Shown here: positions 9,959 through 16,124 of the stretch, one piece after another
Layout: each line of letters opens with the position of its first letter
Position numbering within the stretch: position 1 is the first letter of the stretch
Origin: Candidatus Poseidoniaceae archaeon
Lineage (GTDB): Archaea; Thermoplasmatota; Poseidoniia; Poseidoniales; Poseidoniaceae
Direction: 5' to 3'
DNA length: 53,717 bases
Assembly (NCBI GenBank): GCA_028821785.1
Contig: JAPKFC010000003.1
Span: 1-53,717, forward strand
Program-made: the position numbers and the translations under genes
Notes under the pieces: generated by a model
Seen by the model: only the letters and a program-made list of their open reading frames with translations
Database searches by the model: none
Told to the model about the DNA's origin: nothing

Positions 9959-12900
9959 TCATTGGAAACCAAAGCGGTCGCCACCGGGATTAGATTTATC
10001 ATCCTCTCCGCCTTGTTTCCTCATTACAAACATTACCACAATTGCTCCCACTATTGCAATAATTCCGAGTGCCATTACCAACGATGAAGATGATATTCCC
10101 CCTCCATCGCTAATAACATTGGATTTTTGTTCTAATGTTACAACAATTGGCACTTCTCCAGTTGCTTCACCGTAAATATCTGATGCTTGCAAGAATAGGG
10201 TATGAGTTCCATCCGGTATTCCACTACGAATTGATAATTGAAGGGAATAAATCCCATCTCCTGCAACTTTATCTCCATTGGAGCCATCATCATAGAGTTT
10301 AGACCAATCTTCATTTTGAGTTATTGGATTGAATACTCCTAATCTTGCACGGACTAACATCACACCATCTGCATCGCTAACTTCAGCCTCCAGTAGTGCA
10401 GTTGCAGTACCATCGCCTCGTATGATTTTAAGTTCTTCTACGACTATTTGTGGAGGCGTATTGAGTACTGAAATTGTAGTTGATATCTGTTCTCCGTCTG
10501 GGAGGCGGTATGGTGTTGCAGCATCTGGTTGGGCGTTATTATCAATGCTGATCCAATGCCGTAAAACTTGCTTGCCGCCGATAGAATCTGTAACGATGAA
10601 TGGAATATCATGTGAGCCCGGAGTCATTCCATTTGGTAAAGTGAAATTTCCTGCCCAAACATCACCATCAAGCAATACCAAATCGGTTAATGGTCCACCA
10701 AATATCCGCATATCAATTTGTACTGATTCCACTTCATGACCATCAAATGCCTTGGCATTAACAATAATCAAATCTCCTCGCTTAGCAATATGTGGAACAA
10801 ATTCAACTGAAGTAAGACGTGGTGCATCATTTACAACTTGAATAATTCCCGTGCCTTGTGTTATCGCTCCGAAGAAATCTGTTATTGTTACATTTAGGGT
10901 GAAGTTTCCAACTTCCAGACCAGGAACCCTAAATTGAGTTGTATATCTATCATCACCAATTGCATTATCTCCTGACAACCCTTTGTCATTTAATGTTACA
11001 ATCGAACCACCTAAAACTGTCAAGTCAACTGTTACGGAATCAATATTCCATTCATCATCAGTAGCATGTGCAACAAGATGTGCTAAAGAAGCACCTTCAC
11101 CTACCACCAATCCTTCTTCCAAGGTCAAGCTAACTAACACTGGGTCAGTATTTTCTTCAGATGTGACAATTGAAGGTGATAATACCCTGTCAATATATTG
11201 GGTTTCATTAAGGAATGCTGATTCATTATCAGTTCCATAATCAATTTCAAAACTTCTAGTGACACTTGAGACTAATCCTCTTAGTGGCCCTTCATCAATA
11301 ATCGAACCAAAGGCTGTACCTGATCCTTCTGAATCACCATAAAATCCGGTCCATTCTACAACATGGAAATTATGATTATCTCTTGGGTCATTTCCAACAG
11401 AATTAGCGACTATTTCTAGAACTATGCCATCTTGTCCGTTCAATCTGACATTATCGCCAATCATCATTGGAATTGGCACTAAGCCAGTTTCTCTTCCAAC
11501 TGTGATATTGCCAAGCGCTTGTTCCATTTCCGGTTGAGTTAGATTATTTTGAATTGGAGAACGTTCAGGTCTCTCATCTCCACTACTAGCATCTGGGCCT
11601 GTTTCTTCCCAAACAATTCGAACTGTTCTGTTATCCCAATGGTTGTTGACACTTTGATAATCCCAAGTGTTATTGTTGTATGCACCAGCACCAGCTCCAT
11701 CAAAGAAATTGCCACCATTGACTCCAGTAATATTGAACCAAGATTCTTCGTGAATTACATTTACTTCGAATTCATCACCGGAATAATTGCTCTCCATTCC
11801 TGAAACCTCAATACCCTTGACTATCCCGAAAGTTCCCTGTACATCACCGGAAAGTGTTCCATCAATGTGGATATCATCGGTTACGGTTTGTCCGTCAACA
11901 ACATCTGTTTCCAAATTGAAAATAGTTCCATTGATGACCATTGTGGCGTTTTCATCTTGATCTTCTGCACCAAATGTTCCATGACCACGGAGATTTTCTC
12001 TGTGTTGAGTACGATTTCCATCTTCCCATCTTTCAAGTATTTCCAGACCATCAAGAGATATGTCCATCCTAAATCCATCATCAATAATAATGAAATCACC
12101 TAGTGCTTCAATTTGGGTATGGCTAAGTTTTCTGACACCGTTTTCATCCCATGTTTCAAACAAAAATACACTGAGTTCAGCATCTATATCAATCGTAGTA
12201 GATGATTCATTGGTTGAATCAATTTGCATTGAACCTCCTGCCTCTAAGCGGATTCGTTCTGAATTTATTCCGTCTATCATGCTGTGGTTAATCCAAGCAT
12301 CACTAACATTAGCAATGATTTGAGTTACTGTGTCATCCTCTTCGGTTGTTATCACGAGGTATCCCCAACCCCTTGCATCAATCACTTGAGAGGTTAACAA
12401 TCCGGCTGTAATGGTTTCATTTTTCCAAATTGAATCTAATACAAAAGACATGTTTGTTGATTCGCCTTCAGTATTCTCTTCGGTTACCATCACGCCATCT
12501 CCCAATTCCCATGAATTGAGGACATCACCGACTCTCTGTTGCCATCCGTGGCCATCAAAACTCAAACTGAAATATTGTTCTCCATCTTCGGTGGTATAAT
12601 TTTGCAATAGATCCCAAGAGGTAGTAAGTGTAATTTCATGATCTGCCATCGGTTGATTCCAAGTTCCGATGTCCATACTTCGTGTGAAAAAATTATTGCT
12701 GGTAGTCGCAACGGAATCAATTGAATTCACTGTGACATCAATCGTTACTTGGTCGCCCCATTGCAGGGTTGAATTCAACAGCAAGTGGGCGGTTCTAACA
12801 CCATCATCATATCCCCATGTTGTAAAAATACTAACTTCTAATTCTGTTCCATTTTGAAGATGTGTTACTTCTGTTGTGATGTCGAATGTTGAATTACTTG

Positions 12901-13072
12901 AGAATTTTAATAAGTATGCATGGTTATTATCCGTTCCACTTTGACTTGTCCAAGCAGTTGTAATTTCAACATTTAATGGGTCAACACCATCTGCATAAAC
13001 AGAAAGTGGAGTGAGCAATAGAAGCCCAATCAGAACAATGGGAGTGATGCGTTTGTTCCCAGACATGAACAT
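9959..13072 (-). CDS. Large acidic secreted surface protein with two choice-of-anchor-X-like motifs and a C-terminal TM anchor
   Basis: Signal peptide (KRITPIVLIGLLLLTPLSVYA); LNDKGLSGDNAIGDDRYT and LYDDGSNGDKVAGDGIYS; Ig-like N(T/D)xP repeats; C-terminal TM followed by RKQ. Start moved to 13072 (or 13066) to avoid overlap with dhs. Confidence 0.75.
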   Translation of the reverse strand: MFMSGNKRITPIVLIGLLLLTPLSVYADGVDPLNVEITTAWTSQSGTDNNHAYLLKFSSNSTFDITTEVTHLQNGTELEVSIFTTWGYDDGVRTAHLLLNSTLQWGDQVTIDVTVNSIDSVATTSNNFFTRSMDIGTWNQPMADHEITLTTSWDLLQNYTTEDGEQYFSLSFDGHGWQQRVGDVLNSWELGDGVMVTEENTEGESTNMSFVLDSIWKNETITAGLLTSQVIDARGWGYLVITTEEDDTVTQIIANVSDAWINHSMIDGINSERIRLEAGGSMQIDSTNESSTTIDIDAELSVFLFETWDENGVRKLSHTQIEALGDFIIIDDGFRMDISLDGLEILERWEDGNRTQHRENLRGHGTFGAEDQDENATMVINGTIFNLETDVVDGQTVTDDIHIDGTLSGDVQGTFGIVKGIEVSGMESNYSGDEFEVNVIHEESWFNITGVNGGNFFDGAGAGAYNNNTWDYQSVNNHWDNRTVRIVWEETGPDASSGDERPERSPIQNNLTQPEMEQALGNITVGRETGLVPIPMMIGDNVRLNGQDGIVLEIVANSVGNDPRDNHNFHVVEWTGFYGDSEGSGTAFGSIIDEGPLRGLVSSVTRSFEIDYGTDNESAFLNETQYIDRVLSPSIVTSEENTDPVLVSLTLEEGLVVGEGASLAHLVAHATDDEWNIDSVTVDLTVLGGSIVTLNDKGLSGDNAIGDDRYTTQFRVPGLEVGNFTLNVTITDFFGAITQGTGIIQVVNDAPRLTSVEFVPHIAKRGDLIIVNAKAFDGHEVESVQIDMRIFGGPLTDLVLLDGDVWAGNFTLPNGMTPGSHDIPFIVTDSIGGKQVLRHWISIDNNAQPDAATPYRLPDGEQISTTISVLNTPPQIVVEELKIIRGDGTATALLEAEVSDADGVMLVRARLGVFNPITQNEDWSKLYDDGSNGDKVAGDGIYSLQLSIRSGIPDGTHTLFLQASDIYGEATGEVPIVVTLEQKSNVISDGGGISSSSLVMALGIIAIVGAIVVMFVMRKQGGEDDKSNPGGDRFGFQ

Positions 13073-13125
13073 AGGATTCTCGCACTCCCATTCAAAGCCT
13101 TTGTTGATTTGTGTTGAATAATAGT

Positions 13126-14076
13126 TCAGATATCTAAAATATAACAAAACATTAGCGGAGCAACAATAGTAGCATCGCTTTCAATTACAAACTTCTCCGT
13201 CTCAACCGAAAGTTTGCCCCAAGTTATTTTTTCATTGGGTGGGGCACCGGAATATCCCCCATAGGAAGGAGTCGATTCCGAGATTTGGCAGAACCAAGAC
13301 CACAAAGGGGTATCTTTTTCCAAGTCTTGATTGAGCATTGGTACTACACAAATTGGGAAATCTCCAGCGATTCCACCACCTAATTGCAAGAATGCCAACG
13401 GATTATTGCATTGACAATACCATTCTGCTAAACTGGTCATATATCCAATTCCACCAGTGATTGTTTGTTGCTCAACTTTACCTTGCATCACTCTTGCAGC
13501 AAATATATTGCCCAATGTTGAATCTTCCCAACCAGGTACGACCAATGGCAGATTTGCTTGTGCTGCTGCTAATAACCACGAATTCTCTGGTAATGCTTGA
13601 TACTCTAATTCATCTTCTAACAAAATATCATAAAAGAATTGGTGTGGTAATTTTGATTGCCCAAGTTGACTACTTTTTTCCCAACGGTCCATTAGATATG
13701 ATTCGATTTTTCGAAATGCTTTATCTTCGGGGATACAGGTATCTGTCACCCGATTCATGTTATTATCGAGTAAATCGGCTTCATCTTGGGCTGATAAGGA
13801 GCGCCAATCATCAATCTTTTGATAATGGTTATGAGCGACTAAATTGAATAAATCTTCTTCCAAGTTTGCACCTGTACATGAGATTGCTGCAATATGTCCT
13901 GCTCTGATCATAGGCGCAATACTGCGCCCGAGTTCAGCCGTTGACATCGCCCCGGCTAAAGTTAAAAATATCTTACCGCCAGATTCTAGAAATTGAAGTA
14001 ATGATTCACTCGCTGATGCTAATGAACCGGCATTAAAATGGCGGTAGTGCTCTTTGACAAACGTTCTCACGGACAT
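13126..14076 (-). CDS. Deoxyhypusine synthase-like protein (bacterial-type; possible homospermidine synthase)
   Basis: HFNA, TLAGAMSTAELG, CTGANLEED, GGGIAGDF and YGGYSGAPPNEKITWGK (catalytic Lys retained). Confidence 0.88.
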   Translation of the reverse strand: MSVRTFVKEHYRHFNAGSLASASESLLQFLESGGKIFLTLAGAMSTAELGRSIAPMIRAGHIAAISCTGANLEEDLFNLVAHNHYQKIDDWRSLSAQDEADLLDNNMNRVTDTCIPEDKAFRKIESYLMDRWEKSSQLGQSKLPHQFFYDILLEDELEYQALPENSWLLAAAQANLPLVVPGWEDSTLGNIFAARVMQGKVEQQTITGGIGYMTSLAEWYCQCNNPLAFLQLGGGIAGDFPICVVPMLNQDLEKDTPLWSWFCQISESTPSYGGYSGAPPNEKITWGKLSVETEKFVIESDATIVAPLMFCYILDI

Positions 14077-14079
14077 TCT

Positions 14080-14481
14080 TCACTCCTCCGTGTTTTCTTC
14101 TTGGTAGAGGAATCTGTCATGATTAGATTTTTTAATTAACTTGAGGTTGGGCATTACTCGTTCAAGGGCAATGTGAATTTGGTCAACTATTGTATCTGGG
14201 TCACATTGGCCGCAAGTAAAACAATCGATTGCAAGCCAACCTTTTTCTGAATAACAATGCGCAGTTACATGTGATTCATCCAGCAATACTACTGCAGCAA
14301 AACCAGGTGGTGAGGTATTGCCATCAAATTGTTCAACATGGGAGTGCACTTCCTTAGCTTCACTATTTATTACAGCATCTCGCATAATTTGTAACATCCA
14401 ATTACCATCGTCATTATCAATTGGCGAATAACCTGTATAATCAACAAAAATATGGCTTCCGTGTGACTTTAAATTGTTCAT
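14080..14481 (-). CDS. speD: S-adenosylmethionine decarboxylase family pyruvoyl proenzyme (SpeD/SpeH-like)
   Basis: GSHIFVD, LLDE-SHVTAH self-cleavage site and IDCFTCG; GGAGG SD; ATGA overlap with speB. Confidence 0.85.
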   Translation of the reverse strand: MNNLKSHGSHIFVDYTGYSPIDNDDGNWMLQIMRDAVINSEAKEVHSHVEQFDGNTSPPGFAAVVLLDESHVTAHCYSEKGWLAIDCFTCGQCDPDTIVDQIHIALERVMPNLKLIKKSNHDRFLYQEENTEE

Positions 14482-15488
14482 TGCAGATCCTCCTTTTGGA
14501 AAAAGATTGAGTCGCCAATTGTTCTGTTTTTACCGATTTGCTGAATCATTGGATTCCATCTGCCTTGGTCTTTAGCGTTAATATGATTAGCAACTATTTT
14601 TGTTGCTAACATCGCTGCTGTAAATTGGGTTAGTGGTGAATCTATTTGCGGTACAATCTCATTGACATCGGCAGAAATTACTGTTGCTTTTTCTGCATTG
14701 AATAAAGATTCGATTGTTTCCACTGCTTGCCAATATGATAGCCCGCCTGGTACCGGGGTTCCTGTTGCAGGTACGATGGACCCATCTAAGCCATCTATGT
14801 CGATACTTAGGTGAACAGGACCTTCTATCTTTGACAATGTATCTAGCCATTGTTGCCATATATCTCTACCTGTTGAATGATTTTGTGTATCCTTAGCGAA
14901 GAAAGTAGTGATTCTATCATCATTAGAAATGGTTTCAAATTCTTCTTGGCTATATGCCCTAATTCCGACTTGTAGTAGTCTTCCCACACCTAAGTCAAGA
15001 CTACGTGAGGCAGCGCATGCATGCGAATATGCCTCGCCACCTAATTGGCTACGAAGGTCTGCGTGGGCATCGATTTGGACAATGGTCAATTTAGATAAAT
15101 CATTGTTGATGAGGGGATGATTTTTGGCAGCATTAACCAAAGGCGGTAAGATTCCATGTTCTCCTCCCAATGAGAGTGGGAAACAATCCCCAGCATACCA
15201 CGGTTGAAGGTAGTTGGAAATACCATCTAATTGCTGCAATAATGAATTACCTTCACCATTCCATGGTTGATTGGTATGAATTGCATTACCTTTTGGTAGA
15301 TCAGTTCCAAGTAGCGAATCAAATAATTCAACTTGCCCACTTGCTTCAACACAAGATTTTGGTCCTTGGGAAGTTCCTTGACCATAAGAAGTGGTCAATT
15401 CATAGGGGATTTGTAAAATAACGACGTCAACAATTCCGTCATTTTCGGGCAAGCCTAGGAAGTTGCCTTCTACAAACATGCCACTCAC
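14478..15488 (-). CDS. speB: Agmatinase (ureohydrolase family)
   Basis: PYELTTSYGQGT, GGEHGI, DAHADLR, YSHAC, SIDIDGLD and TGTPVPGGL motifs. GTG start, alternative ATG at 15479. Confidence 0.88.
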   Translation of the reverse strand: MSGMFVEGNFLGLPENDGIVDVVILQIPYELTTSYGQGTSQGPKSCVEASGQVELFDSLLGTDLPKGNAIHTNQPWNGEGNSLLQQLDGISNYLQPWYAGDCFPLSLGGEHGILPPLVNAAKNHPLINNDLSKLTIVQIDAHADLRSQLGGEAYSHACAASRSLDLGVGRLLQVGIRAYSQEEFETISNDDRITTFFAKDTQNHSTGRDIWQQWLDTLSKIEGPVHLSIDIDGLDGSIVPATGTPVPGGLSYWQAVETIESLFNAEKATVISADVNEIVPQIDSPLTQFTAAMLATKIVANHINAKDQGRWNPMIQQIGKNRTIGDSIFFQKEDLQ

Positions 15489-15704
15489 CGAACTAATTCA
15501 AATCAACATTGCTTAAAAAAAGGACGGACACTAAATCTCTCTCCCGAAGAGCCATATTGAACTTTCTTACTGTCAAAAGTTGTCAATATCAGTCGATTTC
15601 ATGAAAAAACAGCGAGAAGTTAATATGGGTTGGAATACAATACATAAAGGTAGTCGGGGGAGATTATCGGCAATGCCGTATCAATCCTGCGCGGAGGAAT
15701 CATT

Positions 15705-16124
15705 ATGGGAATGACAATGGGAGAATTGACAAGAGCCATTCAACAGCACATCGATATCGAGATGGATTCGGAAGTTGCACAAGGAATGGCCGAACACGCT
15801 TTAGGATTCTTCGGGTTCTATAATAGGATTATTGATAACGCATTAGAACCTACAGACCGCAACTTGTTTTACATGTTCCAAGATTATGACCTACTGACCA
15901 CTGAGTCTGAAGAAACAACACTTTGGGATGGCCGAGAATGGAGAATCCACTATTGGAAGTTCAAGCCAGATTTGCGTGAGCGCGTTGAAGCTTATATGCA
16001 ACGTGATCTAGAACCTGAAGTAATCGACCCATTCGCAGATGTTTATGGTGGCAATGGTGCTGCAATATGGACAAAGGAAGCAGAAAGGGTCAAAAATCCG
16101 AATGCATTCAATGCAGAATGGTAA
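15705..16124 (+). CDS. Conserved Thermoplasmatota protein (DUF6015-like)
   Basis: FFGFYNRIIDNALEPTDRNLFY ... LTTESEETTLWDGREWRIHYW pattern recalled from Thermoplasmata hypotheticals; GGAGG SD. Confidence 0.65.
   Translation: MGMTMGELTRAIQQHIDIEMDSEVAQGMAEHALGFFGFYNRIIDNALEPTDRNLFYMFQDYDLLTTESEETTLWDGREWRIHYWKFKPDLRERVEAYMQRDLEPEVIDPFADVYGGNGAAIWTKEAERVKNPNAFNAEW

Follow-up and report, generated by a model that had tools for sequence, protein, structure and literature searches.

Marine Group II (MGII) are among the most abundant archaea of the surface ocean and are uncultured, so that their polyamine biology can be read from genomes only. In one such genome, a gene of the deoxyhypusine synthase (DHS) family stands at the end of a set of polyamine genes, raising the question of whether its product makes a polyamine, and by which route, or serves in the modification of aIF5A. 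The gene lies in a stretch of 53,717 nucleotides from a Candidatus Poseidoniaceae archaeon (Poseidoniales, MGII; GenBank assembly GCA_028821785.1, contig JAPKFC010000003.1, positions 1 to 53,717), referred to here as the window. A first-pass annotation had read it as a bacterial-type DHS-like gene closing a polyamine operon that leads from arginine through putrescine to homospermidine, or as an enzyme that had replaced or doubled as the aIF5A-modifying DHS. Based on the evidence below, it is very probable that the window carries a homospermidine operon composed of SpeDA, a SpeY that makes N1,N9-bis(guanidino)homospermidine (G44G, or caldomycin) and a SpeB homolog, that the route does not pass through putrescine, and that aIF5A is modified by a separate DHS.

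Operon structure and neighboring genes

The operon consists of three genes on one strand, with products assigned to the Pfam folds Arginase, AdoMet_dc and DS, and the DHS-like gene is the last of the three. This agrees with the earlier reading of a DHS-like gene that closes a polyamine operon, for which homospermidine is the likely end product. The genes are closely packed, with a 4-nt overlap between the speB-like gene and speDA and a gap of 3 nt between speDA and speY. The features of the locus, in window coordinates, are:

15489..15704, no strand: intergenic region of 216 nt separating speB from a divergent DUF6015 gene; presumed operon promoter region, judged by position only
14478..15488, minus strand: speB-like ureohydrolase, operon gene 1; 336 aa from a GTG start, with an ATG 9 nt further in; predicted G44G (diagmatine) ureohydrolase
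14080..14481, minus strand: speDA, S-adenosylmethionine decarboxylase homolog, operon gene 2; 133 aa; predicted pyruvoyl-dependent arginine decarboxylase
13126..14076, minus strand: speY, DHS homolog, operon gene 3; 316 aa; predicted agmatine-coupling N1,N9-bis(guanidino)homospermidine synthase
13357..13380, minus strand: GGGIAGDF segment, standing where canonical DHS has GGGxxKHH (human K287/H288 replaced by G238/D239)
13213..13215, minus strand: codon of Lys288, which aligns with the catalytic Lys329 of human DHS

In public records, speY is named 'deoxyhypusine synthase' and speDA 'S-adenosylmethionine decarboxylase', and both names indicate the wrong reactions.

The operon is flanked by two genes of other types. 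On the upstream side, beyond the 216 nt, the divergent gene (15705–16124, plus strand) encodes a DUF6015 protein of 139 aa (252 bits). Directly downstream of speY, an ORF of 1062 aa (9959–13147, minus strand) is without a Pfam match, and its product begins like a signal peptide, contains numerous NxT/S sites and carries a membrane anchor at the C terminus. Read from its listed TTG start, this ORF shares 22 nt with speY; translation more likely begins at MFMSGNKR, ~50 nt past the speY stop, and for this reason the ORF need not be a member of the operon.

Sequence and active site of SpeY

The 316-aa protein encoded at 13126–14076 matches the Pfam DS family (PF01916) over profile positions 11–286 of 288 (E = 1.8e-41, 142.8 bits) and, by sequence, DHS chains in the PDB. 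The motifs on which the bacterial-type assignment had been based are all present in the protein, with HFNA at amino acids 13–16 (window 14029–14040), GAMSTAELG at 42–50 (window 13927–13953) and GAPPNEKITWGK at 277–288 (window 13213–13248). The assignment itself is borne out by full-length identity, which is 58–62% to bacterial SpeY, including proteins from the Bacteroidota, Caldilineaceae and Gemmatimonadota, versus 27% to the DHS of the same genome. The accompanying contrast, that typical archaeal or eukaryotic DHS read GAxxxEAxSWGK, holds for the canonical DHS of this genome (GARLREAISWGK) and for human DHS, and nearly so for Sulfolobus DHS (8put). The DHS of Pyrococcus horikoshii (7cmc) reads GAPPREGVSWGK, and 'GAPP' alone is therefore no mark of a bacterial protein.

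An active-site map was constructed by aligning the window SpeY to residues 94–356 of human DHS, taken from the PDB match 1rlz. The catalytic lysine (K288; human K329), invariant across all of the aligned SpeY and DHS rows, is conserved along with E282 (E323) and W286 (W327), as are the acidic residues in contact with NAD, D185 (D238), D301 (D342) and E74 (E137). In human numbering, the altered positions are H288 to D, K287 to G, D243 to N, D313 to Y and D316 to Y, such that the window SpeY has N190, Y272 and Y275 at human D243, D313 and D316 and G238/D239/F240 at the KHH segment. The altered residues are common to the sampled bacterial SpeY rows and absent from the canonical DHS rows. The SpeY rows of Poseidoniales and of bacteria all read GGGIAGDF, and the corresponding segment is KHH in the human, Sulfolobus and own-genome DHS rows and KHA in Pyrococcus. 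At the level of sequence, the exchange of GGGxxKHH for GGGIAGDF and the Y272/Y275/N190 changes are more telling than the motifs quoted initially, and, judged by identity and residue pattern, the window protein is a SpeY-type relative of DHS, closer to SpeY than to the DHS that modify aIF5A.

The window SpeY falls below the NCBIfam equivalog cut-offs for SpeY (NF001980, 129 vs 450; NF002699, 81 vs 500) and below that of the best-scoring DHS model (NF002006, 111.6 vs 434). Bacterial members of the same clade (L065 and L077) likewise score under the SpeY cut-offs (~120 and 90 bits), which indicates that NF001980 and NF002699 simply miss this clade; as the two models cover other SpeY subclades, the missed cut-offs are no argument against function.

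A separate canonical DHS and the source of the aminobutyl group

The assembly (1.82 Mb in 92 contigs, 86% complete) contains a second DS-family gene on contig C47 with a score of 297.9 bits to Pfam DS. Its product passes the NCBIfam equivalog NF002294 (369.5 bits vs a cut-off of 350), contains GGGISKHH and GARLREAISWGK, and has Sulfolobus 8put as its best solved-structure match (251 bits). The genome check for a separate canonical dhs proposed in the first-pass annotation thus located one, and the suggestion that the window protein had replaced, or doubled as, the aIF5A-modifying DHS does not stand. As a replacement DHS, the window SpeY is ruled out by the gene on C47. The pairing extends across the class Poseidoniia, with at least two DS-family matches in about 190 of the 201 sampled genomes (27 genera).

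The modified protein itself, aIF5A, was not found in the 86%-complete assembly in searches with PF01287, TIGR00037 and motif scans. Because aIF5A is present, with the hypusination loop SKPGKHGGAKAR, in 21 of 25 relatives (TIGR00037; relatives L106–L109 among the loci) and the assembly is 86% complete, the missing gene is most likely an assembly gap.

No spermidine synthase (Spermine_synth), PvlArgDC or alanine-racemase-fold decarboxylase was detected in the genome (86% complete), and Spermine_synth was detected in none of the 201 genomes of the class. With no alanine-racemase-fold decarboxylase (PF02784), the assembled 86% is also without a diaminopimelate decarboxylase of the LysA type. Without a spermidine route, the canonical DHS must draw its aminobutyl group from another donor, and homospermidine would be the obvious candidate; in some ciliates, spermidine is replaced by homospermidine (Li et al. 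2026, PMC13625781).

An agmatine-based hypusination scheme like that of Haloferax is less likely than homospermidine as the donor. Haloferax volcanii has agmatine but no spermidine, and an agmatinase-like gene in its genome is essential and clustered with genes for aIF5A modification (PMC5178350). Applied to the window, the H. volcanii model would have SpeY and the SpeB homolog act on aIF5A, placing the guanidinobutyl group of agmatine onto lysine and removing urea to yield deoxyhypusine. The Poseidoniia are likewise without a spermidine synthase and the chemistry resembles the SpeY reaction, but it is very unlikely that the operon serves this purpose, given that a separate KHH-bearing canonical DHS is kept in nearly all Poseidoniia, that the nearest relatives of the window SpeY belong to bacteria, which are without aIF5A, with those tested making free G44G, and that there is no aIF5A gene in the operon.

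Predicted route from arginine to homospermidine

The chemistry ascribed to the operon is inferred from enzyme assays of SpeY from bacteria and of SpeDA orthologs from MGII. CdmS, a DHS homolog of Thermus thermophilus, converts two agmatines to caldomycin, which is G44G, and a ureohydrolase turns G44G into homospermidine (Kobayashi et al. 2024, PMC10981699). The coupling of agmatine to G44G was likewise shown for six further bacterial SpeY, no G44G was formed by human and plant DHS, and ureohydrolases associated with SpeY are active on G44G and inactive on agmatine (Li et al. 2026, PMC13625781). Two SpeDA from MGII (AIF02979 and DAC51064) were shown to be arginine decarboxylases that lack AdoMetDC activity, and neither complemented a deletion of AdoMetDC (PMC10407285).

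In the proposed mechanism, arginine would be converted to agmatine by SpeDA, a pyruvoyl-dependent descendant of AdoMet decarboxylase. The NAD-dependent SpeY would then oxidise one agmatine at its primary amine, bind the resulting 4-guanidinobutyl group to Lys288 as an imine and pass it on to a second agmatine, again at the primary amine, to form G44G, from which the arginase-fold SpeB homolog would produce homospermidine and two urea. The predicted route would run from arginine to agmatine, G44G and homospermidine, with putrescine as no intermediate, because the assayed SpeY couple two agmatines and the ureohydrolase acts afterwards. Of the pathway initially suggested for this locus, homospermidine is retained as the likely end product; the putrescine step is not, as the assayed bacterial SpeY use agmatine and make G44G.

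Both partners of SpeY are the only genes of their kind in the genome, the speB homolog being its sole arginase-fold gene and speDA its sole AdoMet_dc gene. The speB-like protein scores 171.9 bits to Pfam Arginase (PF00491) and 158.3 to the agmatinase model TIGR01230, under the cut-off of 174.3, and its metal-site motifs are intact (GGEH at aa 108, DAHAD at aa 140 and SIDIDGLD at aa 228). We know of no sequence marker by which the DUH ureohydrolases specific for G44G could be told from those specific for agmatine; by analogy with the assayed enzymes the homolog is predicted to prefer G44G, and it could instead be an ordinary agmatinase. The window SpeDA scores 66 bits to Pfam AdoMet_dc (PF02675), has the Glu69-Ser70 self-processing site within LLDESHVTAH and is predicted, from the assays of its MGII orthologs, to be an arginine decarboxylase.

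A SpeDA homolog (P0517) with 60% identity to the window protein was found on a contig of 104 Mb, the size of which suggests a eukaryotic chromosome. Such a setting fits the remark that stramenopile algae have very similar SpeDA genes (Li et al. 2023, PMC10407285).

With an agmatinase homolog in the operon, the locus could also be read after the plant model, in which a DHS-derived enzyme acts as homospermidine synthase (HSS): SpeB would convert agmatine to putrescine, and the DHS-like enzyme would form homospermidine from putrescine, either alone or together with spermidine. The formation of homospermidine from spermidine and putrescine is a known reaction of plant HSS and of eukaryotic DHS, but none of the assayed SpeY worked without agmatine, all of them built up G44G in the absence of agmatinase, and the coupling of putrescine is a property of the unrelated HSS fold (PMC13625781). 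In addition, the spermidine synthase that is lacking in this genome is lacking in the 201 class genomes as well, and the window SpeY is without the spermidine-site residues D243/H288/D316, making putrescine coupling highly improbable at this locus.

It is also conceivable that the pathway ends at, or branches to, G44G or a mono-deguanidinated form, or that SpeY takes a different second amine. G44G occurs naturally in T. thermophilus (PMC10981699), and, with N190/Y275 at human D243/D316 where Thermus CdmS has F204/L286, the pocket of the window SpeY differs from that of the only modelled SpeY. Against this, the operon includes a translationally coupled ureohydrolase with intact metal motifs, and every tested ureohydrolase turned G44G into homospermidine (PMC13625781), so that an end product other than homospermidine appears extremely unlikely.

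Distribution, gene fusions and phylogeny

A scan of species-representative genomes recovered 596 relatives of the window SpeY. Among the best 80 of the 596, relatives beyond the Poseidoniales belong to the Bacteroidota, Acidobacteriota, Bdellovibrionota, Gemmatimonadota, Chloroflexota (Caldilineaceae), Planctomycetota and other phyla. Within its own phylum, SpeY of the window type is found almost exclusively in the order Poseidoniales, where it occurs in 63 of the 65 sampled genomes; it was found in none of the eight listed genomes of the sister order in the same class, which we take to be MGIII, and one strong match was found elsewhere in the phylum. Other Poseidoniales loci (L005–L016) have the same gene order, speB-speDA-speY.

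In one Poseidoniales lineage, speDA and speY form a single ORF of ~435–455 aa (L023:3554–4921, L042:3608–4918 and L053:3578–4918), and all four genomes of one genus (g3) have fused speDA-speY frames of 433–446 aa. Representatives of the fusion in a wider protein library (P0121 and P0129) combine AdoMet_dc and DS, and a protein of 756 aa (P0122) combines AdoMet_dc, an NNMT/PNMT-like methyltransferase domain and DS. Given the self-cleavage of SpeDA, such fusions would leave the pyruvoyl alpha chain attached to SpeY.

Members of the sister order and other Thermoplasmatota (loci L098–L104; genomes G001, G003, G005, G031, G049, G260 and G347) possess a canonical DHS and a second DS paralog of another subtype. 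The paralogs at L100–L102 best match NF002699, the CdmS type, with 358–379 bits (cut-off 500), and those at L098, L099, L103 and L104 best match NF001980 with 385–452 bits, L099 passing the cut-off of 450. No speB or speDA homolog was present within ~1.4 kb of the L098–L104 paralogs.

Two maximum-likelihood trees were constructed, with canonical DHS and other SpeY subtypes serving as outgroups. The SpeY clade is supported at 100/99–100 in both trees, with the window protein inside and far from canonical DHS; the DHS phylogeny proposed as a check on the bacterial-type reading therefore places the protein in the SpeY clade, and a grouping with canonical archaeal DHS did not occur. Bacterial SpeY form one clade with 100/100 support in both trees (66 sequences in the first), with the Poseidoniales outside. 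In both trees the root falls inside the Poseidoniales, at different points, rendering the archaea paraphyletic. The stems are ~5–10 changes per site (saturated), and monophyly of the Poseidoniales was not rejected by the AU test (p = 0.283). Because the root shifts between trees and the stems are saturated, no direction of transfer is assigned, and the data are compatible with a single ancient transfer, in either direction, between bacteria and the stem of the Poseidoniales. Two archaeal sequences, L105 (G252, from another Thermoplasmatota family) and L050 (a Candidatus Micrarchaeia MAG), pair with 99/99 support inside the bacterial SpeY clade, which suggests separate later transfers or mis-binned bacterial contigs.

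Comparison with known systems

A speDA-speB-speY cluster has been reported from the uncultured MGII/III euryarchaeote KM3_15_H06 and the Ca. Poseidoniales archaeon isolate 70165, with an assumed route via putrescine (Li et al. 2023, PMC10407285); the two assayed MGII SpeDA are those of these two clusters. The window operon comes from the same order of archaea, has the same three genes and is likewise read as a homospermidine cluster; the genomes differ, and the likeness is one of gene content, not of measured identity. The three-gene cluster of MGII was thus already published in 2023, and the finding is real and largely known. The additions made here are the lack of a spermidine synthase in 201 genomes of the class, the SpeDA-SpeY fusions and the other SpeY subtypes in related archaea.

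Among assayed enzymes, the SpeY of Caldilinea aerophila, Winogradskyella algicola and Capsulimonas corticalis (PMC13625781) are comparable to the window SpeY, which is 58–62% identical to SpeY of the same families, has identical residues at the mapped active-site positions and is likewise clustered with an arginine decarboxylase and an arginase-fold ureohydrolase. Unlike the bacterial hosts, the host of the window SpeY is an archaeon that keeps a canonical DHS too, and the archaeal SpeY sequences fall outside the bacterial clade supported at 100/100. The decarboxylase partner in the window is SpeD-derived, as in Capsulimonas, whereas that of Caldilinea is of the PvlArgDC type. The assayed C. 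aerophila SpeY is encoded in a PvlArgDC-Arginase-SpeY cluster (PMC13625781), and the Caldilineaceae relative L065 lies within a cluster of the same composition. Caldilinea sp. proteins are 85% identical to L065, and the link to the assayed enzyme is through a genus-level relative and a matching cluster, not the assayed protein itself.

Thermus CdmS (NF002699) is, like the window SpeY, a DHS homolog with a conserved catalytic Lys and Glu and carries out the reaction predicted for the window SpeY, but belongs to another subclade, as seen in the 81 bits of the window SpeY on NF002699. Canonical DHS (human 1rlz/6xxj, 8put, 7cmc and the C47 protein) share with the window SpeY the fold, the Lys-Glu-Trp trio and the acidic residues in contact with NAD; they differ in identity (27%) and in the KHH segment and acidic spermidine-site residues, which are replaced in SpeY, and the canonical DHS and SpeY groups are parted by long branches in both trees.

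Implications for polyamine biology in the Poseidoniales

In the corrected reading, homospermidine would be made from agmatine by a route that needs NAD and neither AdoMet nor PLP, and this reading fits the published work on SpeY. In a single genome without a spermidine route, it also provides a test pair of a SpeY-type and a canonical DHS-type enzyme, which is the situation raised by Li et al. (2026, PMC13625781) in the question of whether both agmatine- and spermidine-dependent DHS proteins are found in archaea. A broader proposal, tentative and on balance rather unlikely, is that the SpeY operon is the sole polyamine route of the Poseidoniales, with homospermidine (or G44G or agmatine) as the obligatory aminobutyl donor for the canonical DHS, and that the SpeY clade arose in, or passed through, MGII before spreading to bacteria, a direction put forward because outgroup rooting suggests it. 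If true, the hypusination of aIF5A would depend on an agmatine-based pathway, and the obligatory donor together with the MGII origin would answer the question posed in 2026 on agmatine- and spermidine-type DHS in archaea.
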